A DNA stretch of 64,000 nt from Saccostrea echinata (taxonomy: Eukaryota): assembly GCF_033153115.1 (NCBI RefSeq), contig NW_026889753.1, forward strand, positions 7,254,001-7,318,000. The letters are read 5' to 3'. Positions 1,315 to 61,125 of the stretch are shown here, in pieces (the stretch's first letter is position 1; every line of letters starts with the position of its first letter). A program made the translations under genes and the position numbers. Below the pieces are notes generated by a model. The model was not told the origin of the DNA and searched no databases. It saw only the letters and a program-made list of their open reading frames with translations.

Positions 1315-2884
1315 GACCGAGAATATTAAACAATTATTGAAACATATAGTAGGCCTTTCAACTGCCGTTAGGGTTCGATGAAAAGAACGATAACCCGTTA
1401 CCGGAACTTGTTTACAGCGGGTCCGAGGAAGCTAACTGTTTTTAAGCATGTCAAGTTTTAGCATTTCCAAAGTGTTCCTTCACTGTCAGCGGAATCCAGT
1501 GGTTTTAAAATTTAGCTCAAATGTTAAGCTTGTTTATCATGTAGTTAACGACACTGTACAATAATATATAAGTGAAATTTTTAATAAAAATAGAAAGTGA
1601 AATCCATCCCCCTTCTTAATTTTGACCTGATTAAATTTTTATACTTGATCGTTCTTCTTCGTGCTTAGTGAAAAGACTAAGATGAATTATTGTTGCATTT
1701 AATTGTAGAAATATATATCTTTATAGATGAAGCACAACAATGCACACACAAAAAACATGGCATTATATTTTCTTCTTCATAACAACTGTCGGAGAGAGTT
1801 AAAAATCTTGAATATAGTCTGTTCCCCATTCATTGATCCCGTTATTCCAGGTATAGAGTGAAGACATTCTCCTTGTTTTGGTCAACCCTTTTGTGTACCA
1901 AAGAATATAAGGAACCCTTTTGTGAACATAACAATACCAATTGAAGCAGCCTATATGTCATTCCTATAAACGATAACTCAAAAATCGGCACTTTGTTGGT
2001 CGTTTTTTACGCTTGAGTTACCTGTCCTTAAAACACATCTTACAAATCAAATATTAATAATTAATTTTTTTATGATTTAATTAAAGGTATGTTTAGTTTA
2101 CAATCTTCTTTTGAGAATTTCATGTACCTACAAATCTATCTATCAACTGTTTTTTACCATATGTGCAACTTGAAAAACTAGTTGAAAGGCCTACATATAG
2201 GGAAAACTTGAGCTGTCTTACAACAAGACTGCTCTGGTCAATTGCTACGCCAATCTGATTTATGAATAGCACGGGATTTAAATCGCCAGGTGAAACCTGC
2301 TTAACAAGCTTAAAAGTATGGAGAACATATTGGGCAATAAATATTAGTTATACAGTAATCTGATAAAAATATATGAAACAATTATGGACATGAATTGTGA
2401 CAATTACGTCAAGTTTATTGGCCAACTGACGTTTTGAGAATTCTACGTAGGCGCATAATTTACACGCATGTGACATTATCGATGTACATGAGTTACCCGT
2501 TGTCATTGTGTTGCTAATGCTGAGGGTAAGATTACAAATCGTTAAATGCGTTTAAACCAATCATATATTAGTATTTAACATGAAAGTATAATAATATAAA
2601 ATGTTTAAATCTATTTATGTTAAATCCCGATCTGTGAGGACTTCATATAACTGAATATAAGTATTGTTTGATGTGATTTATTTACATGTTATTTTTTATA
2701 GGACTGATTGATTGATTATTTAACGATCATACAGTGAATTGGTATCCATGCAGTAAATGATCTTCCTTTGTACAGCTGTGTTTTGTTCATCTTCATAACA
2801 CGGCCACATACGAAAAGTCACCAGTACCAAAATTCCTTACTCTCAAATGGCATTTCTTGGATCATATCAAACAGCATGGACGGC

Positions 2885-3165
2885 ATATATATCTGATGTT
2901 GATGTCCAGCGCATCGCTCAAGCAGTACGAGGCATCATTGTATTCGAAATACGCAACATTATTGATCCTTTAAAAGAAACAAATATCTACTCATCAAAGA
3001 GAACATGACACTTGAAAAGCAATTTGATAATCTCGAAATGTCAGCAGAGTGTGCATCAGAGTCGCAGGAATTTCCGAGGAATAAGAAAACACAGATGATG
3101 TCGTCTTTGACACTGCAACCAAATTGGAAAATTCCTCTCGAAAAGGAGGACATCAGCTCTTGAAT
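2885..3165 (+). pseudogene. Decayed non-LTR retrotransposon ORF1 fragment (coiled coil + RRM start)
   Basis: With frameshifts reads ISDVDVQRIAQAVRGII...KENMTLEKQFDNLEM/SRVCIRVAGISEE*ENTDDVVFDTATKLE/IPLEKEDIS, matching the LINE ORF1 pattern DLEQYSRRNCLRIxGIxE..ENTD..V...DI. Confidence 0.6.
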
Positions 3166-4939
3166 TTTCTCATGCATTCTCTCAGTTTAAATTGTGTCTC
3201 GACCTGTAAGCACTATACTTTACGCGGTAATCATCAAAGGAAAACATCAGTTGCCACTGACAGGAAAGAGATCCTGAAGACAATCTAGAAGATTGATATA
3301 TTACACAATGAAAAGCATGATTTTTCTTAATTTTTTTTTCACTTTTGACAATACATTGAAAATATTTTGAACGATTGAAATGCTATCACCATTCATCGCT
3401 ATAGTATTTGTAGTTGTAAAAACACCTGGATTTCCACACTGTGGACACTTCAAAACGATTGCAAGTGCATTAAAAACCTGGAATCGAAGGTATACGAGAT
3501 TCTCAACTCCTAATCGGGTACCTACATAGTTCTGAAACCATTTGAATAAATACTTATATCATCAAACGTGCTTTGTATACTCTGTTTCAATGTAGCCACC
3601 GTTTATCAAAGCGGCCTGATTAGAAGTAAATTAATGGTCATTAGATTAATACAGACTTGACCTCTGATTTTTCATAGGGATGAGAAACATAATTTCTTTG
3701 TCAAAAAATTAAAACTAAAATATACGTTTACTTGCAACTAAGTAGAATGCATATGAGGCAGTTTAATTTAAGTACTGAAAACACTGATATCAGGAATACA
3801 AGAAAAAATGATCCTGCAAGGGTATGCTGCTTCACTGCCTGCCTGCGGTATATCACATATAATACATATGAATCCGAATCTTGTCCTGTAGCTGTTTTAA
3901 ATACTAAATTTGAAGAAATACATATAAGTAATTTCTCTAACTACAATAATAAATCAATATAAAAGAGAATCGAGGTACAGGAGAGATATTGCTTCTAAGA
4001 AATCAGCCGAGACTTCAATTAATGTGCAACTAGAATTTAATTTATCATGAAGGTCCGAAAAAATGTTTTGAACCTCAGACCTTGAAAAAGGTCAAAATGG
4101 TTGTGTATAAAAGAAAAACAGTATGACGTATTCCTTTTTCAAGATTTGTATTATTATACATGTATGAAAATTTGCATTTCCACATTTCCATCAGATGGAA
4201 TAAAAAAGGAGCTATACACCTAACCTTTTCAAGTGACGTTGTCTTCAATTTATTTAAGGATAAATTGGACATGGTTTTAAATTGTTAACAGGGAATCAAA
4301 GAATTATAATCTGAAAGTAGCATATAAGCTATCCGATGCATAATTGGGGAAAAAAGTCACATCACAGAAAGTGTGATCATATTTCATAGGCCAATATATT
4401 TACGAAGAAGCTTAATAAAATATTTTTCATAATTTGATGGTCAATGCGTAATTATATAATTTTAAGAGAAAATATTTACTGATTTTTAAGAAAAGATAAC
4501 TATTAAACTAAAAGTCAGTTAAAGGACTTTGTCCATGCATTTCCTGTATTTCACGTTGTTTGATATTCTTATTCTATTTTTTCAACAATTCAATAAGTAT
4601 AATTTATGTTGAATGTATACTGAAAAGTGCAAATATCCATCAATTATAGATCTATAGACTTCTAACCATTTGAAAACATATGACATGTTACATGCATGTA
4701 GTTACTAGTAAAGTTGATTTCCTCAAAGTACACAATAACAGTGCATCGAAGGGACAATATATAAACAATTTGAGAATGTCAATGATGTTGAACCTAAAGT
4801 CAGTCATTAATGCAAATATTTGAAAACAATAGAAACTATATTTATTTGCAAACAAGGTAATTATTAACTACCATAGAATTTTAGAAATACTGACATAAAG
4901 GTGTATTTGAAATCCCTGTAACATACAATTTATTTTTCA

Positions 4940-5956: not shown

Positions 5957-8900
5957 CTAAAACACATGTATAAAAATTAGGTATGAAATTAGCAGTGGTA
6001 GTATTAGTAGTACATGTAATGGTTATATATGTAGTAACTAGTAAGTAGTAGTATACGTTATATTTGTGGTATAAATAAGTATAAATAATTATTAGTAATG
6101 TTCGGAAGCAATAGTGTATTAAGTTCTACATGTACAAGTACAGTGGCAGTAAATAATAGTTGTTATATGAAGAAGAATTAAATACTAGTAAGTATTAGTC
6201 CTAGTAGTAACAGTACTAGTAAGTAGAAGTCGTAGTAGTAACAGTACTAGTAAGTATTAGTCATAGTAGTAACAGTACTAGTAAGTAGTAGTCGTAGTAG
6301 TAACAGTACTAGTAAGTAGTAGTCGTACATGTAGTAGTGACAGTACTAGTAAGTAGTAGTCGTAGTAGTAACAGTACTAGTAAGTAGTAGTCTTAGTAGT
6401 AACAGTACTAGTAAGTAGTAGTCGTAGTAGTAACAGTACTAATAAGTAGAAGTCGTAGTAGTAACAGTACTAGTAAGTAGTAGTCGTGGTAGTAACAGTA
6501 CTAGTAAGTAGTAGTCGTAGTAGTAACAGTACTAGTAAGTAGTAGTCGTAGTAGTAACAGTACTAGTAAGTAGCAGTCATAGTAGTAACAGTACTAGTAA
6601 GTAGCAGTCGTAGTAGTAACAGTACTAGTAAGTAGTAGTCGTAGTAGTAACAGTACTAGTTAGTAGTAGTCGTAGTAGTAACAGTACTAGTAAGTAGAAG
6701 TCGTAGTAGTAACAGTACTAGTAAGAATAAGTCGTAGTAGTAACAGTACTAGTAAGTAGTAGTCGTAGTAGTAACAGTACTAGTAAGTAGTAGTCGTAGT
6801 AGTAACAGTACTAGTAAGTAGATGTCGTAGTAGTAACAGTACTAGTAAGTAGTAGTCGTAGTAGTAACAGTACTAGTAAGAATAAGTCATAGTAGTAACA
6901 GTACTAGTAAGTAGACGTCGTAGTAGTAACAGTACTAGTAAGTAGTAGTCGTAGTAGTAACAGTACTAGTAAGTAGTAGTCGTAGTAGTAACAGTACTAG
7001 TAAGTAGAAGTCGTAGTAGTAACAGTACTAGTAAGTAGTAGTCGTAGTAGTAACAGTACTAGTAAGTAGTAGTCGTAGTAGTAACAGTACTAGTAAGAAT
7101 AAGTTGAGTAGTAACAGTACTAGTATGTAGTAGTCGTAGTAGTAACAGTACTAGTAAGTAGTAGTCGTAGTAGTAACAGTACTAGTAAGTAGTAGTCGTA
7201 GTAGTAACAGTACTAGTAAGTAGTAGTCGTAGTAGTAACAGTACTAGTAAGTAGTAGTCGTAGTAGTAACAGTACTAGTAAATAGAATTCGTAGTAGTAA
7301 CAGTACTAGTTAGTAGACGTCGTAGTAGTAACAGTGCTAGTAAGTAGTAGTCGTAGTAGTAACAGTACTAGTAAGTAGACGTCGTAGTAGTAACAGTACT
7401 AGTAAGTAGAAGTCGTAGTAGTAACAGTACTAGTAAGTAGACGTCGTAGTAGTAACAGTACTAGTAAGTAGAAGTCGTAGTAGTAACAGTACTAGTAAGT
7501 AGTAGTCGTAGTAGTAACAGTACTAGTAAGTAGAAGTCGTAGTAGTAACAGTACTAGTAAGTAGCAGTCGTAGTAGTAACAGTACTAGTAAGTAGAAGTC
7601 GTAGTAGTAACAGTACTAGTAAGTAGTAGTCGTAGTAGTAACAGTACTAGTAAGTAGTAGTCGTAGTAGTAACAGTACTAGTAAGTAGCAGTCGTAGTAG
7701 TAACAGTACTAGTAAGTAGTAGTCGTAGTAGTAACAGTACTAGTAAGTAGTAGTCGTAGTAGTAACAGTACTAGTAAGTAGTAGTCGTAGTAGTAACAGT
7801 ACTAGTAAGTAGACGTCGTAGTAGTAACAGTACTAGTAAGTAGTAGTCGTAGTAGTAACAGTACTAGTAAGTAGAAGTCGTAGTAGTAACAATACTAGTA
7901 AGTAGCAGTCGTAGTAGTAACAGTGCTGGTAAGTAGTAGTCGTAGTAGTAACAGTACTAGTAAGTAGTAGTCGTACATGTAGTAGTAACAGTACTAGTTA
8001 GAAGTAGTCGTAGTAGTAACAGTACTAGTAAGTAGTAGTCGTAGTAGTAACAGTACTAGTAAGTAGTAGTCGTAGTAGTAACAGTACTAGTAAGTAGTAG
8101 TCGTAGTAGTAACAGTTCTAGTAAGTAGTAGTCGTAGTAGTAACAGTACTAGTAAGTAGTAGTCGTAGTAGTAACAGTTCTAGTAAGTAGTAGTCGTAGT
8201 AGTAACAGTGCTGGTAAGTAGTAGTCTTAGTAGTAACAGTGCTAGTAAGTAGAAGTCGTAGTAGTAACAGTGCTGGTAAGTAGTAGTCGTAGTAGTAACA
8301 GTACTAGTAAGTAGCAGTCGTAGTAGTAACAGTACTAGTAAGTAGTAGTCGTACATGTAGTAGTAACAGTACTAGTTAGAAGTAGCCGTAGTAGTAACAG
8401 TACTAGTAAGTAGTAGTCGTAGTAGTAACAGTACTAGTAAGTAGTAGTCGTAGTAGTAACAGTGCTGGTAAGTAGTAGTCTTAGTAGTAACAGTACTAGT
8501 AAGTAGAAGTCGTAGTAGTAACAGTACTAGTAAGTAGTAGTCGTAGTAGTAACAGTTCTAGTAAGTAGTAGTCGTAGTAGTAACAGTACTAGTAAGTAGT
8601 AGTCGTAGTAGTAACAGTTCTAGTAAGTAGTAGTCGTAGTAGTAACAGTGCTGGTAAGTAGTAGTCTTAGTAGTAACAGTACTAGTAAGTAGTAGTCGTA
8701 GTAGTAACAGTTCTAGTAAGTAGTAGTCGTAGTAGTAACAGTGCTGGTAAGTAGTAGTCGTAGTAGTAACAGTACTAGTAAGTAGTAGTCGTACATGTAG
8801 TAGTAACAGTACTAGTTAGAAGTAGTCGTAGTAGTAACAGTACTAGTAAGTAGTAGTCGTAGTAGTAACAGTACTAATAAGTAGAAGTCGTAGTAGTAAC

Positions 8901-11900
8901 AGTACTAGTAAGTAGTAGTCGTAGTAGTAACAGTACTAGTAAGTAGTAGTCGTAGTAGTAACAGTACTAGTAAGTAGTAGTCGTAGTAGTAACAGTACTA
9001 GTAAGTAGACATCGTAGTAGTAACAGTGCTGGTAAGTAGTAGTCTTAGTAGTAACAGTACTAGTAAGTAGTAGTCGTAGTAGTAACAGTACTAGTAAGTA
9101 GTAGTCGTAGTAGTAACAGTTCTAGTAAGTAGTCGTACATGTAGTAGTAACAGTACTAGTAAGTAGTAGTCGTAGTAGTAACAGTGCTGGTAAGTAGTAG
9201 TCGTAGTAGTAACAGTACTAGTAAGTAGTAGTCGTAGTAGTAACAGTTCTAGTAAGTAGTCGTACATGTAGTAGTAACAGTACTAGTAAGTAGTAGTCGT
9301 AGTAGTAACAGTTCTAGTAAGTAGTAGTCGTAGTAGTAACAGTGCTGGTAAGTAGTAGTCTTAGTAGTAACAGTACTAGTAAGTAGTAGTCGTAGTAGTA
9401 ACAGTACTAGTAAGTAGTAGTCGTAGTAGTAACAGTACTAGTAAGTAGTAGTCGTAGTAGTAACAGTTCTAGTAAGTAGTAGTCGTAGTAGTAACAGTGC
9501 TGGTAAGTAGTAGTCTTAGTAGTAACAGTACTAGTAAGTAGTAGTCGTAGTAGTAACAGTACTAGTAAGTAGTAGTCTTAGTAGTAACAGTACTAGTAAG
9601 TAGTAGTCGTAGTAGTAACAGTACTAGTAAGTAGTAGTCGTAGTAGTAACAGTACTAGTAAGTAGACATCGTAGTAGTAACAGTGCTGGTAAGTAGTAGT
9701 CTTAGTAGTAACAGTACTAGTAAGTAGTAGTCGTAGTAGTAACAGTACTAGTAAGTAGTAGTCGTAGTAGTAACAGTTCTAGTAAGTAGTCGTACATGTA
9801 GTAGTAACAGTACTAGTAAGTAGTAGTCGTAGTAGTAACAGTGCTGGTAAGTAGTAGTCGTAGTAGTAACAGTACTAGTAAGTAGTAGTCGTAGTAGTAA
9901 CAGTTCTAGTAAGTAGTCGTACATGTAGTAGTAACAGTACTAGTAAGTAGTAGTCGTAGTAGTAACAGTTCTAGTAAGTAGTAGTCGTAGTAGTAACAGT
10001 GCTGGTAAGTAGTAGTCTTAGTAGTAACAGTACTAGTAAGTAGTAGTCGTAGTAGTAACAGTACTAGTAAGTAGTAGTCGTAGTAGTAACAGTACTAGTA
10101 AGTAGTAGTCGTAGTAGTAACAGTTCTAGTAAGTAGTCGTACATGTAGTAGTAACAGTACTAGTAAGTAGACGTCGTAGTAGTAACAGTGCTGGTAAGTA
10201 AAATTAAAAAGCATTAAATATTAGAAGTACAGTAGTAGCAGTATAGTAGTAGTAGAAGTATTTGCATTATTAGGAGTACTAGTTAGAAGATGAAAGAAGT
10301 ACTAGACTAATAGCAGTTACTATAGTTTGTAACTAGTTATAACAATAATAAAGTAACACGCAAAAGAAACACAACAAGCAGTAAATTACAAATATCTGAA
10401 TTTTTTAGTATTTAAAAATAGTAATATTAATAATAATATACTAGTACCTAACATTTTGTGATTCAATGTGGTTTCTATTCAGTGAGTTGTTTGTTTGTTT
10501 TTTTTTTTTACACCTTAGTCTTTTATGAAGGAATGAAATAAAGAATATAATATCCAATCCAAAACTTTTATGTCATATTATAATAAATTAAAAGGTATTT
10601 CGGCAACTTTTTTGCTTTCCAGTTGGCTTTCTTTCGCTGCATAACAATTCTAACATTAATCATCAGCGGAGTGAGATAACGAGAAAAGTGTTTAAAAGTA
10701 GGATCTGTTATTTCAATGATTTTTAATCTAAATTTTAACTTTTCGTCGATTTTAAATGTTCATGTTTTTCATGCACATACATAAATATATGTTGATGATA
10801 GAACGGGGCGTCAGAAAAAAAATGTAGGGAATGTAAAATCACTGTTTTAAGTGGTAACATGATCAAGATCTACAAAACTGGATTATTAGTTACGATGTTT
10901 ATTTGAGTTGTGTGAATCGTTATTTTTATCATTCATATCATTTCTCAAAATCTGAATTTGGATTGCAAAAGTATAACTCATACCTTTATATAACTTAATC
11001 TTTTCCAGTATATGGTTACATCCTCCAAGTACTTATTTTGTTCCTTTTGCTTTTCCTTTTGTTGTTGTATATAAACATCCTTTCGTGACTGAAGCTCCTC
11101 TTTCACTACTTTAAAACATCCCTGCAATAACAGGCAAGTTAAAACAAGATATTATGAGAAAGTGGATCATCCGATTTCATGAATTTTATTGGCTTTATGT
11201 ATGTACACTGTTTATTTATTTTTACCTCTTTATAGAAGCCGGACTTTACATATTCGTGGCAAATTCTGTTGGTGTTTGAAGGATTTTTTGCAGAATAACT
11301 TTCACAGCAAGTCTTTGGTATCTGCGAGTTTGTTTGCTGACAGTCTCCAGATGTTGTACACCATGGAGTTGTGTCAAAGTCATTCGTGGTAGAGTTTATG
11401 GGGTTTACAGCACAACAGTTACGCTGGAAGTATATAAAGCAGCGAGCTTATGAAAAATTAGTAAACTCCACTTGTCAAGCAGAGTTTTTTGTTTCATATT
11501 TTTATTTAAGAAAGCTTCTTTGCATATGTCCACTACGGTGAATGGGAACATCTCAAAACTAATTTCCCTTACCAAATTGCTTTGAAAGCAGTAGAACTTC
11601 ATCAAGTCTGCTGCACCTTTGCAGCAAACATAAGTTTGTCGCTGTAAGATAACTTTCTTAGCTTGTTGGCAGATGAATGCCGCTAGCTCTAATCTTGCGA
11701 GCTGCGGGAACTCATGTCTATATAGAGGAACATTGCAAGAAACACACATACACGTACCATTCTGTTGTTTGCAACAGATTTGCAAGAGACATTTTACAAA
11801 TTGATTGTTTGCAGGAAATTTGCAAGAATAGTAAATACATGTAAGTCGAATTAGCCAATGAAATTCAGATTGTGTTTAGTTCAACACAAAATTTGTAATT

Positions 11901-24044: not shown

Positions 24045-24230
24045 GTGAAGATAACAAACATTTATAAATCTTACAAGTACTATTTACAATTCAAATCGTA
24101 AACAGGGAAATAACACGCATCCTGGAAACACCAGAGGTTGTGGAACAGGGTGCCAAGGGAGGAAAAAAGCAATCTCTGCGACTGGTCACACCCGTGGTGA
24201 GCCCTCTGTATTCATAATGGAAACGTAGTA
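24045..24230 (-). mobile_element. Solo Penelope-like 3' terminus
   Basis: ggtgaagataacaaac...cctggaaacaccagaggt...ggtcacacccgtggtgagccc aligns with other copies. Confidence 0.7.
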
Positions 24231-29688: not shown

Positions 29689-30194
29689 AACAAGCATTCT
29701 GAGAGTATTGCATTAGCAATACTAGTCCCCTACCGGCAAGTGTAATCTGGTTCCCGTTAAAAATTGAAAATGCCATAATTCCGTCAAAATCAATGAAGCA
29801 GAACGAAATGCAAACTTGATCTATAACTAATCAAGGTAAAGTCACATACAAAAATCAGCTCAATATCTGCAAGCGTTTAGGAAAAAAGTGCGGAAAACCC
29901 TGGAAAATTGAGAAGTTCGTAATTCCGTCAAAAATCATTGAAGCGGAACGAAATGCAAACTTGATCTGTAACTCATCAAGATACACTCACATACCAAAAA
30001 TCAGCTCAATATCTGCAAGCGTTTAGAAGAAAATTGCGGAAAACCAAGTGGGACAGACTGACAGACAGACAGAGGGACAGACGGACAGACGGACAGACGG
30101 ACGGACAGACAGACAGACAGCTAGACAGACAGACGGACGGACAGACTCAGAGGAAACCTATAGTCCCCTCCGGTTTCACCGGTAGGGGACTAAT
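29689..30194 (+). mobile_element. Second HINE/pearl-type element with two ~144-bp core repeats
   Basis: 5' AACAAG, subterminal tagtcccctaccgg; cores at 29777 and 29921; (GACA/GACG)n 30052-30146; 3' palindrome tagtcccctccggtttcaccggtaggggacta. Confidence 0.88.
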
Positions 30195-31819: not shown

Positions 31820-32495
31820 AGCTGAAGAAATGAATAGTGATCAATCTTATAAAAATCTAAAAACAATACAATTAGTGAGCAGAGCATAAATCACGGACCC
31901 ATGGAAATTCCAGAGATGGGACAGGTAATTGGGAGGAGTAAGCATCTCCTGTTGACCGGTCATACCCGCCGTGAGCCCTATGTACATGTATTGATCAGGT
32001 AGACGAAACATTCCATGGTCAAATTTAGTATAAAACAAAGGCTTTACAATCAATATGAAACACAACAGTCCAAATACGACCCAGTGATAGGTTATGTTTG
32101 CTAACACGGCAATTCTAACGACCATAGAATTTACGAAATGCTGACTTAAAACGAACTTTTTAAATCCCTGTTACATCAACTTATCTGTCAATAGCTTGCC
32201 TTGGATTAAAAATTGATCGTTCTCAGAGAATGCTCTTAAAAATGGAATAAGCTAGGAAACGTAAACATCTTATGCATGTGATTGCAGAAAATTACTACAT
32301 AAATAAGGAAAGTGGACGATGGAAAAGCTGAAGTCATCTCGTTTGTTATACAATTTAGTTATTAATTGTCCCCTATTGGCTATAGTCAGTGAAATATCCA
32401 AATATAAACGGGTGTGGCAGACTCTGTGGTGTCTTTTATTTTAATTTCACTGGGATATATCGTGTCGACATATGAATGGAAGTAACTATTGATAG
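31820..32495 (-). mobile_element. Penelope-like (Naiad) 3' fragment
   Basis: Aligns with 20155-20440 and 45268-45930. Confidence 0.8.
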
Positions 32496-34829: not shown

Positions 34830-35115
34830 CAGCAGTTTGCAAATTATATGGTGGTTATAGTGGTTCTCGTTTGTAAATATATTCATACCAATTGTTATGT
34901 CATTGTTTTTTTATGCTGATTCTAACTACTTTACTCCGTTTACCTGACTAATACAGAGGTCTCACGGTAAGTGTGACCGGTGGACAGGAGATGCTAATTC
35001 CACCTCGACATCTGATCCAATTTCTGATGTTTCCAGTAGTCGGTGTTTTTGCCCTGTTCACAATTTGTATTGATTAAAGGATTTATGAGATCAATCACTG
35101 TTCGATATCTTCAAC
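34830..35115 (+). mobile_element. Penelope-like 3' fragment
   Basis: ctcacggtaagtgtgaccggtggacaggagatgc...gatcaatcactgttcgatatcttca. Confidence 0.75.
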
Positions 35116-36134: not shown

Positions 36135-36330
36135 TTGTCAGAAGTCAATTCAAACAGTGTAATTATGAGCAGAGCGACACGGACCTCTAAAAATCAGAGG
36201 TTGGGAAAAGTACCTTGGAGGACTAAATAAGCATCCCCTGTCAACCAGGCACATCTGCAGTGTGTTTCTTGCCATGATCGGGTGAACAGAAAAAAATGTA
36301 GACAATTCAAAATAATGGCCTAACATTTTG
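36135..36330 (-). mobile_element. Solo Penelope-like 3' terminus
   Basis: gacacggacctctaaaaatcagaggttggg...agcatcccctgtcaacc. Confidence 0.7.
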
Positions 36331-39289: not shown

Positions 39290-39410
39290 TGATATCTCGT
39301 TCCTACCTCTATCGTTCTTAGGTTTGGAGGTCCGTGTTTTTGCCCTGTTCATTTAGTGTTTTTACAGGATTTATAAAATTGATCACAATTTGTTATCTTT
39401 ACCTCTTTCC
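39290..39410 (+). mobile_element. Penelope-like extreme 3' remnant
   Basis: ggaggtccgtgtttttgccctgttc...ttgatcacaatttgttatctttacc. Confidence 0.55.
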
Positions 39411-43976: not shown

Positions 43977-45267
43977 TTAGAAAATACGAATAAAATCATA
44001 GTGCGATAAAAAAAAAAATCTAAACGTCTTGTAATTAAGCTCATATAATGTGAATTATTTTAAGTAAATTTGGAACGTGTTTGAATCCCATAAAGGAAGT
44101 ATGAAATAAATCATAATTTGTGAATGCCCTTACACATTACTGTAGAAATATAGATTATGTTGCATAATTTTGTCATGAAGCTGGTTAAAAGCGCATTGTC
44201 ATGCTCAAATATAGAACCTTATCTACTTAATCTTCTCATCTAAGTTTTGCATTTATTCACATGCCTCACTGACTTCATGTCGTCTTTACAGATCACGTCT
44301 GTCATTTATTTTTTATTTTATTTTTTTTTAAATTTTAAACCTGGAAGCTTACAGTCATGACATTTATATGATTGAGTGCTAAATTGCTAGCAGTTTTCAA
44401 TCATGAAACGGTCTATTATAAATAGGAAGTTATATATTGATATTTACATCAACTTATGAAAACCACCTCTTTCATTAATCAGTAAACGCCAGTAAACTAG
44501 TTAGAACCGGTTTTTAACCCACCTTTATAAATAATATATATATACGTGTGGTGGATAATAACCTTGAAATAAACCTATGCTTTATCAACGACTGTGCTTT
44601 ATCAATAGCACGTCCGGTTTGGATACAACCTTCCCCTCAGGATGTAAATTTATTGAAATTTGTATTTGTGAAAGTTCTTGCGTTATCAAATGAATGCTTA
44701 TGAGCAAAAATGTCCGTTATAAACAAGAAAAGACTTATATGTCGTTTTATTTCTATATTTTTTACTGGTCACTGCGATAATCCTCCCAATCCTTCTCATA
44801 TAAAAACGTTAAGTCTAGCATTAAAGTTGTTGGTGCAAGATTCATTTGACCATGCAGGAGAATCTAGTCACTTTCAACAATACTTTCTTACATTATACTA
44901 TATAACTTATCATGGATCTACAAGTAGCTTAGCACTGTCGCCGTACACAGAATGATTTCAGAGTAAGATTCATAATTCCTCGGTCTTTACAACACTGTAC
45001 AACTTCCAGTCAAAAGTTTGTATTAAAATAAATCTCAAACAGGTTGCCACATTTGTTTTAAAAGACACAACAGATATAATTCCAAAATTCCATATTTTGT
45101 ATCTACAGATAACTTTTTAGGGATATAAACGTCAACAGTGCGACGTCATCAATTTACTCGTCCTCGATTTGGGTAGAATTTCTCAAAGTTTTTTTTAAAG
45201 GAAAAAAGTATGAGATAAATAGAACATTTATGAGTGTGTGATTTGATATTTGCTTTATGAAATATGT

Positions 45268-47475
45268 GGAGATATCGAACATTACTCGAGCTCAAAAGTC
45301 CAATAAACATTACAAAATAGGAACAGAGCAAACACGGACCTCTAAGACATCAGAGGTGGGATCAGGTGCCATGGAGGAATGAGCATCCCCGCTGACCGGT
45401 AACACCCACCGTGTGCTCCTTGTCATGATCGGGGAATAACGAAAAAATCCATCGACAATTCAGTGTGTAAATAATGGCCTATTAATTAGTATGAAAACGT
45501 CAGTCAGCATTTGACTTAGTGAAAGACTGTATTGCTAACAAGGTCATTGTATCGACCATAGAACTTACGAAATGATGACTTTAAACGGGACTGATGATAT
45601 TCTTGTGTCATCAATTTGTTTGTCAATAACTTACCTTGTTTTAGAAATTGTTCATACGTAGAGCATGCTCTAGCGTATCGAATCAACTGAGAGATATAAA
45701 CCCCGTATGCAGGCGATAAGGGTATATTGCTCCATAATTAAGGGAAGTTGACGATTGAAAAGTTAAAGTCATCACGTTTATCATGAAGCTTTGTTGTTAG
45801 ATTACCATCTATGTTTTTTTTCTAATAAAATATCCAAATATGAAACAGATGTCAGACTCTGTGGTATCTTTTATCTCAAGCTCATCGGGATATATCGTGT
45901 CGACATAAGAATGGAAATTACCATTGTTAATTGACAGTACGTCGTAGATATATCTAAATGTCGAGTTGAAGGCCACAGCAGGTTTTTCTTCTCTTCACGT
46001 AAAAGATTTTGAACAAATTCTGCTTCATATGAATACAAAAATAGGTTTACTAATAACGGGGCGCAATTGGTACCCATGGGAATTCCGATAGATTGTTGGA
46101 ACATCTGTTCTCCAAAAACCACATAGATATTGTCAATCAGAAACTCGAGCATCTTTTTAATGTCAACTTCAGAGTACTTGTGTGTATAATCAGATTGTTT
46201 TTTACCAAAGTAATTTTGCAAATGACCAATGACAAGGTAAGTAAATTTACGAGTTCCATTTTTATTGAAAAAGCAGCTGTCAACGATGTCAGAAAGTCTG
46301 GACTTTAATTTATCGTGGGGAATAATTGTATATAAAGTTGAAAAGTCGTAAGTTTTTATGTTGTTGATTTTAATAAAATTCTGTTCCAGATGTTCCTTGG
46401 AATTTTTTAGTATCCACATCTGATTTACAACACTTCTCGAATATATTGTTGCACAGTACTCTTGAAGTTTATCCTTCACTACTGTTAATATCTTAGTGAG
46501 CACTAAAGAAAGAGGCTTGGTAGAACATTTACTGGAACCTGCTATGTATCTTTGTTTGTAAGGATTTTTATGAAGTTTCGGAATCCAATATAGATATGGT
46601 AATTCAAATTCATTTTGAATGTTGGAAATATAAAAAAATATTCAAAACTGACATATGATTTTGAAGAATTTCCTCCTTAGAAAGGGAGCTATTGGTATAA
46701 GTTGGAATACCACTTGAATTTGCAATATCCATAATCACAGATCCGAGCCTGTATTCTGGTGTCGAATAATCAACAAATGCACTTTCCTTGACCTTTTCAA
46801 GTAGACTATTCAAAAGTTTTAAAATAAAGTTTGGTGCGAATGTGATGAAGACCTAACTGTTATTATAAGGTAGTAAAGAATCATAAGAGATATCGTGTAT
46901 TAAAAGTTTATTATAAGACGGATGCCCATGACTACGTTTACGTCTCTGTGTATCGTTCAAAAGTCCCATCACATTGGCATTGTTACACTGTAGACTGGAA
47001 AGATTCCATACACTATCGACATTGTCATTGCATCCATTGCGTCCCTAGTTTTCTAATCAAAAATTCTTCTCGTTGTCTACGGAAAGGTGTACTCAGTGAT
47101 GGACTGTTTGTATGATGGTAAATCTTTTCTAGCATTCTAACTTCCATTGATAAAATTGAATAATCAGGTAAATTAAAGTGCTTGTACAGAAGCTGCTGGC
47201 CCCCGATGTTTATTTGAAATCTGTTATCCGATATTCTTTAATGAAGTGAACCCTTGGTTTCACCAACATAAATAAGTCCACAAAGATTATATTCTATTCC
47301 ATAGACAACATTAGAAGATTTGCAGTTCAGATTTTCCCAAGTTTTGGTATAGAAGCTCTGTCCAGTAAGACTACTAGTGAAAGTAGTGTTAGTTATCAAA
47401 ATGTCACAGGTTTTACAGTTTTTCGCAGAACATTTTGAAATAGCTCGGCAAGCCTCGCGAATATACACCATTTCA
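45268..47475 (-). mobile_element. Penelope-like retroelement with N-terminal GIY-YIG endonuclease and C-terminal RT (Naiad-type); defective
   Basis: ORF 47238..47471 has CxxxxCxxC and NVVYGIEYNLCGLIYVGETK (GIY-YIG); ORF 45871..46503 has KTYDFSTLYTIIPH and QQSIGIPMGTNCAPLL; RYIYDVL follows a frameshift; conserved 3' terminus at 45268-45440. Confidence 0.9.
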
Positions 47476-47533
47476 ACGCGTTGGATAAAGCAAACATCAA
47501 ATCACACAATATAGCCCCCCCCCTTTCTCTCTC

Positions 47534-51379: not shown

Positions 51380-52540
51380 GTATGTAGCAGGAACTTGTGC
51401 CTAGGGAAATTGAAAGTGAAATCACAAAATTTTACGAAAATTAATAGCATTAAACCGTGTTAATTTTCCACATTTTATACAATCATTCCTCACAATATAT
51501 TAAAGGCCAGTTTTTTTGCATTCATTGACGACTACTTTTTCAGTAAAAATGGAACTTATGAATTAACGTACCTTGTCATTGGTTATCTGCAAAATTATTT
51601 TGTTAAAAACATTCTCATTCTACACATGTTAAGTACACCAAGGTTGCTATCAACAAGATGCTTGAGTTTCTGATTGACATTATAACATCTTTATAGGTTT
51701 TGGAGCTCAAGCCTTTCAACAGTCTGTTGGAATTCCCATGAATACTATTTACGCCCCTTTATTAGCAGACTTGTTGTATTCATTTGAACCAGAATTTTTC
51801 AGAATCTTCTATATGAAAAGAAGTCTCTTGCTGTGGCCTTCAACTCGACATATATATATATCGACCACGTTTTATCAATTAACAATATTCATTTTCCTTT
51901 CTTTCTTGATTCTTTGTGTCTCTTTGACCTCGAAATAAAAGACACCACAGAGTCTGACACATCTGTTTCATATTTGGCTATTTTACGAGAAAAAGACATT
52001 AATGGCAAACTAACAAATAAACGTTATGATAAACGTGATTAATTCAACTTCCCGTATTTATCTAACAATATACAATGCACAATAATCACCTACGTTTGGA
52101 ATTTATGTCTCTCAGTTGATTTGATACGCAATAGCATGTTCTACGTATGAACAATTTCTAAAACGAGACAAGCTATTGAGAAATAAGTTGATGATACAAG
52201 GACATCAGCAATGTCTAAAGTCAACGTTTCGCAAATTCTATGCTCGATACAGTGAAGTTATTATCAAATACAATCCATCATTAAGTAAAATGCTGACTGG
52301 CGTTTTTCATACAAATTGTAAGTCTATAATTTTCACCCTGAATTGTCTACGGATTTTCCCGTTTACCCGATCATGACAAGGAGCACACGGCGGGTGTAAC
52401 CGGTCTATAGGGCATGCTTACTTCTCCTTTGCATCTGATCGCATCTCATATGCTTACAGAGGTCCGCATTTGCTTTGTCCCATTATGTGTTGATTTAATG
52501 GACTTTTGAGCATGATTACTGTTCGTTATCTTAAAATTTC
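51380..52540 (+). mobile_element. Penelope-like (Naiad) decayed RT + 3' terminus
   Basis: FQQSVGIPMNTIYAPLLADL, YIDHVLSINN, YDKRD and KSTFRKFY motifs in ORFs 51738, 51833, 52176. Confidence 0.88.
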
Positions 52541-53194
52541 ATGGACATTCTTTACATATAATCCAAACACGGTCAAGTACTAAAACAGGAGGATACTTTA
52601 ACTAGAACACGTGACGATTTTTCTCTTTAAGAAAATGTATATCTTACAATTGCGAACTTTGTTTTTTTCGTGTTTATTTACAATTCAATTTTAACCACAG
52701 ACACTGACTTGGTCATTGTACTTGTTTAAATAGCTTCCAAACGATGAATTAAGTAAATAGGGTACAAATTACACTACTTGTAAAGAGTCATAAAAGAAGG
52801 AATGACGTTAGAATTATTAAATTTGCTTTTCAGCTTCCATATAAATTGCTTATTTAGATTCACAAAAACAGTCGTCAAGAGGTTATATTTCATTTTTACA
52901 GTACATGACCCTTTGAGACTTTTTAAAGTGTTTAATTAAAAAGAACTAATATAACCCCAGTGGTATTTAGGTCTGGATTGCTTGTATTTGCTCATATGAG
53001 AGGGTATTTAATGCCATCAGTAAAAAGTTAGAAAACTAATGTAAAAATGAATTGAAAAATACAAGAAATTCTTAATCCAATATTGTTTATATATGTTTAC
53101 GTGTATATATGATATGTTTTCCTTAATACGAAAATTGTTAATAAATTGTGATAAATCTCATATATTTTGTAAACAATATGAAACGTGAACACGT

Positions 53195-53400
53195 TAAAAA
53201 AAAAGAACCCCTGGAAACAACTGAAGTACGATCAGTATCCTAGGAGGAGTGAGCATACTCTGTCGGTCACTCAAGTCCGCCATGCATGACCCTCTGTAAT
53301 AATCAGGGAAACGGAGTATTCAAGCATAGTATGTAATCTAAAGCCTAACAAGTGATATAAAACATGTCAGTGAAATTCAAAAATGGTCAACGTACCACTA
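53195..53400 (-). mobile_element. Solo Penelope-like 3' terminus (decayed)
   Basis: aacccctggaaac...cctaggaggagtgagcat...ccgccatg. Confidence 0.6.
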
Positions 53401-57270: not shown

Positions 57271-57590
57271 TGATTGATTGATTGTATGTTGTTTTACGTC
57301 CCGTTCGAAAAATTTTTACTTATATAGAGACGTCACCATATACCGGTGAAGGGCTTCAAATTTAGACCTTTACTCGGCACTCAGAGCCATTGAGCAGTGA
57401 GGGTTCTTTATCGTGCAAACGCCTACCGTAACACGGGGCCTCCGTTTTTAAGGTCTCATCCGAAGGACCCGCAACTTTCACTTCAAAGTGCCAAACGTTT
57501 GACGAAGAAACAGTTGCTACCTATTTTTTATCGACTTAAGTCAGTCGCGGCCATAATTCGAACTCCCGACCTTCCGATCACGGCGCGAAT
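57271..57590 (-). mobile_element. tRNA-derived SINE, second copy
   Basis: Colinear and highly similar to 14721-15050; B box GTTCGAATT; (CAAT)n tail. Confidence 0.88.
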
Positions 57591-60369: not shown

Positions 60370-61125
60370 GTTTTTATATTCTCATGAAGCAGATTTATTC
60401 AAAAACTTCTAAATGAGAAAAAGTGGCCTTCAGCTCGACATTTAGATTTTATCAATTAACAATAGTTATTTCCATTTATATATCAACTCGATTTATCCCA
60501 GTGAACTCTAAAGAAAAGACACCACAGATTCTGCCACATCTGTTTCATAGTTTGATGTTTTACTACTTATAGACAATAAGGACCAGCTAACATTTAAAAT
60601 GTAGAACAAACGAGATGACTTCGGCTTTTCCATCGTCAACATTCCTTGTTGCAATATTCCGCTATCACCTACGCAATAGGGGTTCATGTCTTCCAATTTG
60701 TTCAATACTTTAAAAAATGATTTGAGTACAGTCACTGTTTAAATCTCGGCAGGCTACTGACAGATAAGTTGATGTTACAAGGATTTCAACAACTTCGTTT
60801 TAAGTCAGCATTTCGAAAATTCTGTGGATTTTAGAATGACCTTGTCGTGAGGGTCATTGGGTCGTATTTTTGCTTACATTTTCTATACCAATTGTTAAAC
60901 CTTTGTTTTTTTTATATTAAATTTGACTCAAGAATAGTCCGTCTACCTGATCAAAACATAGAGCTCTTGGTGGATGTGACCGATTGACAGAGGATGCTTA
61001 CTTCTCATACGAACCTAATTCCGCCTCTGGAATTTCATGGACTTCGTATTTTATGTCCTGTTCACAAATTTGTATTGTTCAAGATTTTTTTTTTGATCGA
61101 CCACTATTAGTTATCTTCACCTTTT
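60370..61125 (+). mobile_element. Penelope-like (Naiad) RT C-terminus + 3' terminus
   Basis: KRDDFGFSIVN, KLMLQGFQQLRFKSAFRKF; 3' terminus at 60940-61125. Confidence 0.82.

Follow-up and report, generated by a model that had tools for sequence, protein, structure and literature searches.

Why should one GC-rich block of about 90 nt recur throughout a short stretch of an oyster genome? The window analysed here, 64,000 nt of Saccostrea echinata DNA (contig NW_026889753.1, positions 7,254,001 to 7,318,000), contains ten full copies of the block and one partial copy, found with a covariance model and nhmmer. A first-pass annotation had listed the places of the repeat and had read it as a folded RNA ending Naiad-type Penelope-like elements (PLEs), either as a signal for the reverse transcriptase (RT) or as a self-processing RNA replacing the PLE hammerhead. 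The listed places hold good, since a covariance model trained on 14 sequences, all from outside the window, recovers ten copies at the same coordinates (E 2e-20 to 3e-4). On the minus strand these lie at 19563–19658 (with an internal deletion, in a truncated Naiad), 20214–20323 (of a CCTAGG subfamily), 24098–24210 (decayed), 31876–31984, 36162–36273 (decayed), 45325–45420 (itself decayed, the A of an invariant CAG being gone) and 53194–53295 (decayed); on the plus strand they lie at 34952–35061 (decayed), 52375–52484 and 60955–61055 (decayed). The partial copy, found by nhmmer at 39300–39407 on the plus strand, retains the 3' half and tail. Across the S. echinata genome (G000, 923 Mb) a strict 20-base degenerate pattern has 7,263 matches and its reversed control none. 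An evenly spaced 600-kb genome sample contains 27 copies reaching the 3' end, which scales to roughly 40,000.

The block at 45325–45420 belongs to a decayed, 5'-truncated Naiad copy on the minus strand (45255–47443; 86–89% identity to the genome tandem unit by blastn), in which unit positions 342–1087 are joined to 1833–3289; the internal deletion of about 746 nt takes out the CxC/DKA region. An N-terminal CX4CxxC and GIY-YIG endonuclease (EN) remnant, with stops, is found by translation at 47020–47443 (minus strand), and the RT fragment P0001 (45871–46641, minus strand) gives a weak Pfam RVT_1 match (E 0.015, below the cut-off). The Naiad marker of an N-terminal GIY-YIG with CX2-5CxxC upstream is present in the window at 47020–47443 and in loci L530 and L126, and the CxC and DKA markers between EN and RT are present in L530, of the same family, and in the foreign loci L126 and L128. 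Partial tandems (pseudo-LTRs) and inverted 5' copies were also found. The element thereby resembles the Naiad clade as set out in the available part of Craig et al. 2021 (PMC8557442), which has an N-terminal CX2-5CxxC-GIY-YIG, CxC, DKA and RT, tandem pseudo-LTRs, inverted 5' copies and heavy 5' truncation, and in which the CxC and DKA marks define Naiads. The oyster family is, by eye, very close to the published Naiad_Sglo consensus. In three of the four near-full-length loci examined, two or three same-sense copies of the motif stand 3.3 kb apart, and the fourth has two copies 4.2 kb apart.

Several other features of the window accompany these elements. The 45-kb Naiad is flanked by a 24-nt inverted repeat, 96% identical (47485–47508 and 45235–45258), with no other instance in about 1 Mb sampled; it could be an inverted target duplication. 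A 320-nt repeat (14729–15051, second copy 57271–57588) splits a Naiad RT fragment. A near-perfect long inverted repeat with arms of about 50 bp (22050–22155), with a sub-threshold, weak Rfam miRNA match on both strands, is probably a small foldback element. Tandem arrays occupy 6183–10200 (31 nt, 128 copies), 15440–16397 (166 nt, 5.8 copies) and 29776–30045 (145 nt, 1.9 copies).

The block does not form the 3' terminus of the element, as had been thought. With position zero at the first C of CGGGTG, the outer stem ends at +82 and element copies end at +144 to +157, so that some 70 nt separate the end of the block from the 3' end of the element; it begins 71 nt 3' of the ORF stop. For these reasons it is a motif of the 3' UTR and not a terminus. 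Some copies do lack the RT, as had been observed, and comparison with the tandem unit by blastn shows nothing special in them, these being ordinary 5'-truncated copies.

On the element strand the order of parts is P0a, CGGGUG, palindrome 1 (10 nt), RCAG, P2a (5 nt), GCUYA-CYY, palindrome 2 (6–8 nt), CACCYG, P2b, the P4 hairpin and P0b. In the copy at 45325–45420, where all parts are on the minus strand, the 5' strand of the outer stem P0 (45409–45419) pairs with its 3' strand (45326–45337). The P1 5' strand CGGGTG, its first C decayed here (45403–45408), is complementary to 45363–45368 and is followed by palindrome 1, with one decay mutation (45393–45402). Next come the RCAG linker, invariant by column conservation, its A lost in this copy (45390–45392), and the 5' strand of the pseudoknot helix P2 (45385–45389), which pairs with 45358–45362. 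GCUYA followed by CYC, a candidate catalytic strand picked out by column conservation (45375–45384), precedes palindrome 2 (45369–45374), which is 6 nt long in oysters and 6–8 nt elsewhere. The P1 3' strand CACCYG with the P2 3' strand (45358–45368) and the terminal hairpin P4, variable in its loop (45338–45357), complete the motif.

This fold was assessed on an alignment, A1, of 14 sequences (two from the S. echinata genome, ten from metagenomes and two contaminants of genome contigs), hand-picked from 28 rows with near-duplicates and visibly decayed copies left out. In A1, 94.3% of 422 cells are paired and two-sided changes are seen in 21 of 31 pairs; slid controls reach 33–47%, and none of 500 shuffles matches the observed pairing, shuffle comparisons here and below not being p-values, since shuffles ignore relatedness. 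Four of the five scored pairs of the outer stem and five of the six pairs of the terminal hairpin vary on both sides. The GGGAT/ATCCC pseudoknot, which had been put forward tentatively, proves to be among the best-supported helices: all five P2 pairs covary, 69 of 70 cells are paired and there are 12 distinct variants among the 14 sequences. RNAalifold recovers P0, P2, P4 and the outer palindrome pairs from A1 unaided; folding of single copies gives modest z-scores, from -1.0 to -3.1. Because A1 was a selected set, the count was repeated on all 34 distinct core-spanning matches of a sequence-only HMM, decayed copies included, in which 147 of 168 P2 cells are paired (shuffle mean 117, maximum 128). 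P1 has no signal in this unselected set (177 of 198 cells, shuffle mean 178); being nearly invariant it offers no covariation test, and its predicted pairing probability is 0.8–1.0 in nine of the 14 sequences. In the 12 published consensi that bear the motif, as they stand in the available supplement of PMC8557442, P2 keeps five of five pairs in ten and four of five in two (by eye).

CGGGUG, CAG, GCUYA and CACCYG are nearly invariant across lineages, and identity between lineages is 0.68–0.74 in the core, 0.30–0.46 in the flanking UTR on either side and 0.43–0.69 in the upstream coding sequence. Covariation across lineages, the check that had been set beforehand, is present, the motif is better conserved than the UTR around it, and no already described Rfam motif matches it: Rfam 15 covariance models, run on the window, one copy, L133 and ten foreign loci, returned only chance matches. 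The reading of the first-pass annotation as an RNA fold on the Naiad element strand accordingly survives in its main part. Its inner TGCTTA/TAGGCA hairpin does not, since not one of the six pairs shows a two-sided change and pairing is equally good in 441 of 500 shuffles, and the CACAG/CTGTG of copy 19579 carries no weight as pairing evidence because CpG decay yields the same on both sides; the comparison across lineages takes its place. The two palindromes had been missed altogether.

Palindrome 1 is the more telling of the two. In A1 all 70 of its cells are paired and all five pairs covary, including the central pair, which is complementary in 14 of 14 sequences with four pair types; 11 variants among the 14 sequences keep full self-complementarity. 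In the unselected set 157 of 170 cells are paired (shuffle mean 115, maximum 128). A hairpin requires a loop of three or more nucleotides, and a sequence self-complementary even at its centre cannot be one; such symmetry would be selected only if two strands pair. The predicted self-duplex energy runs from -11.6 to -18.1 kcal/mol and, in every one of the 14 sequences, ranks within the top 4% of shuffles; the hairpin form, at 0 to -0.6 kcal/mol, is unstable. Palindrome 1 thus likely pairs with a second copy of the motif as an intermolecular duplex. Dimer minimum-free-energy folding, which cannot model the pseudoknot, makes it intermolecular in 11 of 14 structures, partly so in one and not in two. 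Palindrome 2 always adjoins CACCYG and is CCATGG in 95 and CCTAGG in 25 of 178 S. echinata genome copies; its cross-lineage signal is weaker (116 of 135 cells paired, shuffle mean 109, maximum 115), and its register differs in oysters. Comparative support for the predicted pseudoknot and for dimerisation is strong.

A group of 46 genome matches with a broken palindrome 1 was considered as counter-evidence and rejected as a dead copy inside another repeat, because most of the 20 fetched share sequence far past the element's 3' end. These matches (L448–L467, with one at L049) represent a dead Naiad 3' fragment carried as a passenger in an unidentified repeat of at least 2.4 kb.

Could the symmetry be a property of the DNA instead? 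The motif might be a protein site, a cDNA hairpin or a promoter element, or might simply be inherited with no selected structure; palindromes are strand-symmetric, and PLE promoters reside in pseudo-LTRs. Against this, the sequence of palindrome 1 varies as described with its symmetry kept through G-U wobbles, and the motif is conserved more than the coding sequence beside it. Furthermore, the strand bias of mismatches claimed by the first-pass annotation is borne out: read on the element strand, G-U cells number 45, of which a single invariant pair supplies 13, and A-C cells three, which argues for sense RNA rather than first-strand cDNA. A DNA-level signal or inheritance alone is a very improbable explanation.

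The motif is not confined to oysters. An RT fragment used as query retrieved 51 Naiad-like loci from metagenome contigs, in 26 of which the end of the ORF can be placed and is followed by 200 nt or more. The motif lies within 400 nt past the ORF end in 23 of these 26 loci of other hosts, which are not independent because many are decayed copies of one accession prefix. Two of the three remaining loci seem broken at the motif, and the third, L133, has a different 3' UTR. The available part of the PMC8557442 supplement gives the 3' ends of 29 of the 54 Naiad consensi, compared here by eye with names taken from the file order. The motif is present in 12 of the 29 (three oysters, an ark clam, a pearl oyster, four hemichordate, two Clytia and one toadfish consensus). 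Six others (Mgal, Bpla, Mphi, Scon, Mmer and Movir-1) have another, twister-like motif, and 11 have neither in the stretch covered; of these 11 consensi several carry hammerhead-like cores and some are themselves incomplete. The motif is deeply conserved, from hydrozoans to oysters. Pattern scans of prokaryote and viral collections gave at least 128 matches, with the full structure in two among the matches listed; both are AT-rich, one has a piece of Naiad RT, and they look host-derived. No Naiad RT was found in viral contigs. Animal Naiad sequence within two bacterial genome assemblies (L223 and L225) is likely host contamination.

Two further observations come from the same part of the supplement. 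In both Clytia families (Naiad-1/2_Chem) the motif is preceded by another block that is conserved and rich in GC. The 3' UTRs of Naiad_Bfor, Plae, Amil, Chem-3 and Smim contain pieces of a hammerhead-like core (GGCCGAAAC and CTGATGA) in unusual order, which are possibly permuted hammerheads.

In most loci the motif stands 17–181 nt past the ORF end, as might be expected of an element that acts from the 3' UTR on RNA stability, nuclear retention or translation and for which dimerisation is incidental. UTR regulatory elements are often pseudoknotted junctions like this motif. Such a function would leave two maintained palindromes unexplained, no Rfam cis-regulatory model matches, the SECIS layout is absent at the motif, and this explanation is improbable.

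The most informative locus is L133, whose intact 1,007-aa Naiad ORF is accompanied, in the pseudo-LTR, by a motif that resembles twister and holds two palindromes (L133:147–245, by eye), also seen on the minus strand of L156. No oyster-type motif was found on the L133 contig, which covers only part of the 3' UTR. Its RT nests among those of motif-bearing elements (15-row tree, midpoint root, support 99/98 and 97/95). By eye, the L133-type motif resembles a circularly permuted twister with two palindromes at the place of P1, and its 2-bp pseudoknot covaries (AC/GU, CC/GG and GC/GC, by eye). An RT-recognition element would track the RT and a ribozyme can be swapped, so that this replacement by an unrelated motif in the same region, next to a closely related RT, is the strongest functional hint. 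On this comparative ground self-processing is favoured over RT recognition as the candidate function.

A conserved signature, GCTGGTGGA..TCCCCGAG, occurs 15–45 nt past the tandem junction (L126:143–170, L133:605–630) and, in most of the bivalve and hemichordate Naiad consensi of the available supplement of PMC8557442, at the 5' end. Naiads with either 3' motif have the GCTGGTGGA..CCCCGAG signature immediately beyond the tandem junction in common, and for that reason this signature is the better candidate for RT recognition; it is a candidate RT-recognition, initiation or promoter element.

These observations weigh on a further alternative, that the motif is a non-catalytic signal for dimer linkage and RNP assembly. 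The palindromes would hold together a pair of template RNAs or a pair of copies within a single transcript. Binding of the Naiad EN-RT to the invariant core would aid the template jumps that build tandem and inverted pseudo-LTRs. Retroviral dimer-linkage sites, with their paired palindromes, offer a parallel. All the covariation evidence fits this explanation equally well, the motif is only some 70 nt from the start of reverse transcription, and a PLE protein is predicted to be dimeric (PMC11167929, as far as its available part goes). Pooled unselected copies also seldom start near the motif, with two starts in -50..+45 against 15 in -128..-50 and eight in +45..+100; this depletion is post hoc; it was seen in 41 copies and did not replicate cleanly in a second sample of 27 (2 versus 2). 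Against a dimer signal stand the unrelated motif in the same region of L133, the shared GCTGGTGGA..CCCCGAG signature as the better RT-recognition candidate, and the binding site of Poseidon, which lies 3' of the junction, within the first 172 nt of the ORF. On balance this explanation is possible and somewhat doubtful. Solo copies seldom start inside the motif and often start just 3' of it (+57 to +94), a pattern noted post hoc and not cleanly replicated, perhaps from RT stalling at the stem.

Our preferred explanation, to which we give an even chance from sequence comparison and analogy, is a dimer-dependent self-cleaving ribozyme of undescribed fold replacing the PLE hammerhead. Two copies of the motif would be brought together in a transcript that extends from the upstream pseudo-LTR across the element. 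Both palindromes would form intermolecular duplexes between the copies, the invariant unpaired letters would build the active site, and cutting would free an RNA of unit length that might then be circularised, along the lines proposed for PLE hammerheads. Those hammerheads reside in pseudo-LTRs, their stem III is palindromic, and cleavage has been proposed to take place in dimers of tandem copies (PMC4209133, PMC6765202, in the parts available). Of 73 distinct pseudo-LTRs, 38 start upstream of -10 and therefore keep the whole motif core. Their 5' junctions have no single-base spike and a broad excess, 16 in -10..+50 versus 7 in +50..+110. According to the available part of PMC11167929, cleavage-site ends are likewise missing in Poseidon although its hammerhead cleaves with protein, and the scatter of junctions is consequently weak evidence in either direction. 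The same source reports that the Poseidon hammerhead is dispensable for insertion in vitro, which counts against a ribozyme. RNA-seq was available as three raw-read runs of one study, oligo-dT and unstranded, with reads mostly 85–95% alike. These three runs gave no end pile-ups at the motif, a comparison of little power because the 5' UTR was barely read, reads there being almost absent; the signal reflects passenger transcription of fragments.

The letters of the motif stand in the supplementary consensi of PMC8557442, the available part of which does not describe it, and File S1 there lists the oyster and hemichordate families without any motif comment. No description was found in the full-text literature, subscription journals and the candidate supplements of ribozyme surveys lying outside this scope. 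The motif is real and, within the literature covered, undescribed; its catalysis is proposed from sequence and analogy.

What would follow if it cleaves? Natural self-cleaving ribozymes fall into some ten to twelve classes, and new ones are rare. On a broader and more tentative version of the preferred reading, held at somewhat below an even chance, this would be a new dimer-only ribozyme class with thousands of copies per genome, and Naiads would swap cores (this one, twister and hammerhead-like) in one dimer-gated slot without ever losing self-cleavage. Naiads, as the available part of PMC8557442 presents them, are a successful PLE clade without a canonical hammerhead, some having hammerhead cores and SECIS elements, and from this it was suggested that hammerheads may be no more than parasites of PLEs. 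If the reading is true, a dimer-forming motif here, together with one resembling twister in sister families, would overturn that suggestion, and dimer-gated RNA processing would be a general part of the PLE cycle. If the motif is non-catalytic, it is still a defined cis-element of an abundant invertebrate retrotransposon, the RT of which is sister to telomerase.

How, then, does the motif compare with known RNA classes? Mappings onto the pistol, hatchet, hairpin and HDV ribozymes, made by eye, gave no fit. The SECIS pattern (AUGA/GA core, apical AA) is absent over the motif on the element strand, and the ORFs of L126 and L128 run uninterrupted for 1,000 aa with no recoding by in-frame UGA. The HDV fold has P3/L3, a P1.1 GG after P1 and a J4/2 cytosine before P2b. 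In the succession P1a, linker, P2a, pyrimidine-rich loop and P1b the motif resembles the first half of that fold, to which the HDV-like ribozymes of R2, RTE and L1Tc belong. In the Naiad motif, by contrast, P2b abuts P1b in 14 of 14 sequences, leaving no P1.1 GG and no J4/2 between P4 and P2b; the P3 candidate lacks covariation, and the motif is 3' rather than 5' in its element.

Twister-sister and the TS-like ('lantern') RNAs provide a more specific likeness, as far as the available parts of PMC5660989 and PMC11620745 describe them. They share the GCUYA and CAG strands and the same possible A-U and G-C pairs, which can form in 14 of 14 sequences; C, A, G and G, C, U, Y, A match G5–G9 and G59–A63, and C62U and C62A are tolerated there with A63 essential. 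By this analogy the cut may be guessed at GCUY|A. A rearranged, domain-swapped twister-sister, in which RCAG and GCUYAC rebuild the L1 loop and cleavage falls at Y|A, is nonetheless quite improbable. GCUYAC agrees with the TS-like strand G-C-U-C-A-(U/A), which is cut at C|A, at five of six positions, and a five-letter match can be chance. The 5-nt strand G-C-N-A-G with its essential G5 is represented by RCAG without N; G5 is unconserved, the base before CAG being G in only 65%, yet G5A nearly kills twister-sister. The extruded base is missing, alignment A1 contains no SL4 whose loop could dock on L1 and no three- or four-way junction beyond P2, the helix order differs and there is no Rfam match. 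One 5-nt segment joins both strands, which a monomer could hardly accommodate, and the implied pairs never vary. The likeness is a lead only, given that G5, extruded base and SL4 are all lacking and that many classes were compared. For the Naiad motif of mussels, clams and box jellyfish, and for that motif only, the GAGG strand, NA step, YCAAG loop and pseudoknot resemble, by eye, the twister layout and agree with the criteria in PMC11662667; it differs in the two palindromes of its P1 region, and no Rfam twister model matches the mussel-type motif.

A parallel to the preferred reading, a dimer-dependent ribozyme, lies within the PLEs themselves. The minimal type I hammerheads of PLE pseudo-LTRs are reportedly the subject of Lunse 2017. 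The Naiad motif does not belong among them: the hammerhead core CUGANGA/GAAA was sought over the 3' UTR and junction without finding CUGANGA on the element strand, and no Rfam model matched. It has two palindromes rather than one, a pseudoknot and an invariant 6-bp helix. It is like these hammerheads, as the available part of PMC4209133 describes them, in the region of the element that it occupies, in a palindromic stem needing a second copy and in the low activity to be expected of a monomer. A palindromic stem for dimers in a pseudo-LTR, a trait of PLE hammerheads, is thus found in the Naiad motif as well, as a device that both share rather than as membership of one class.
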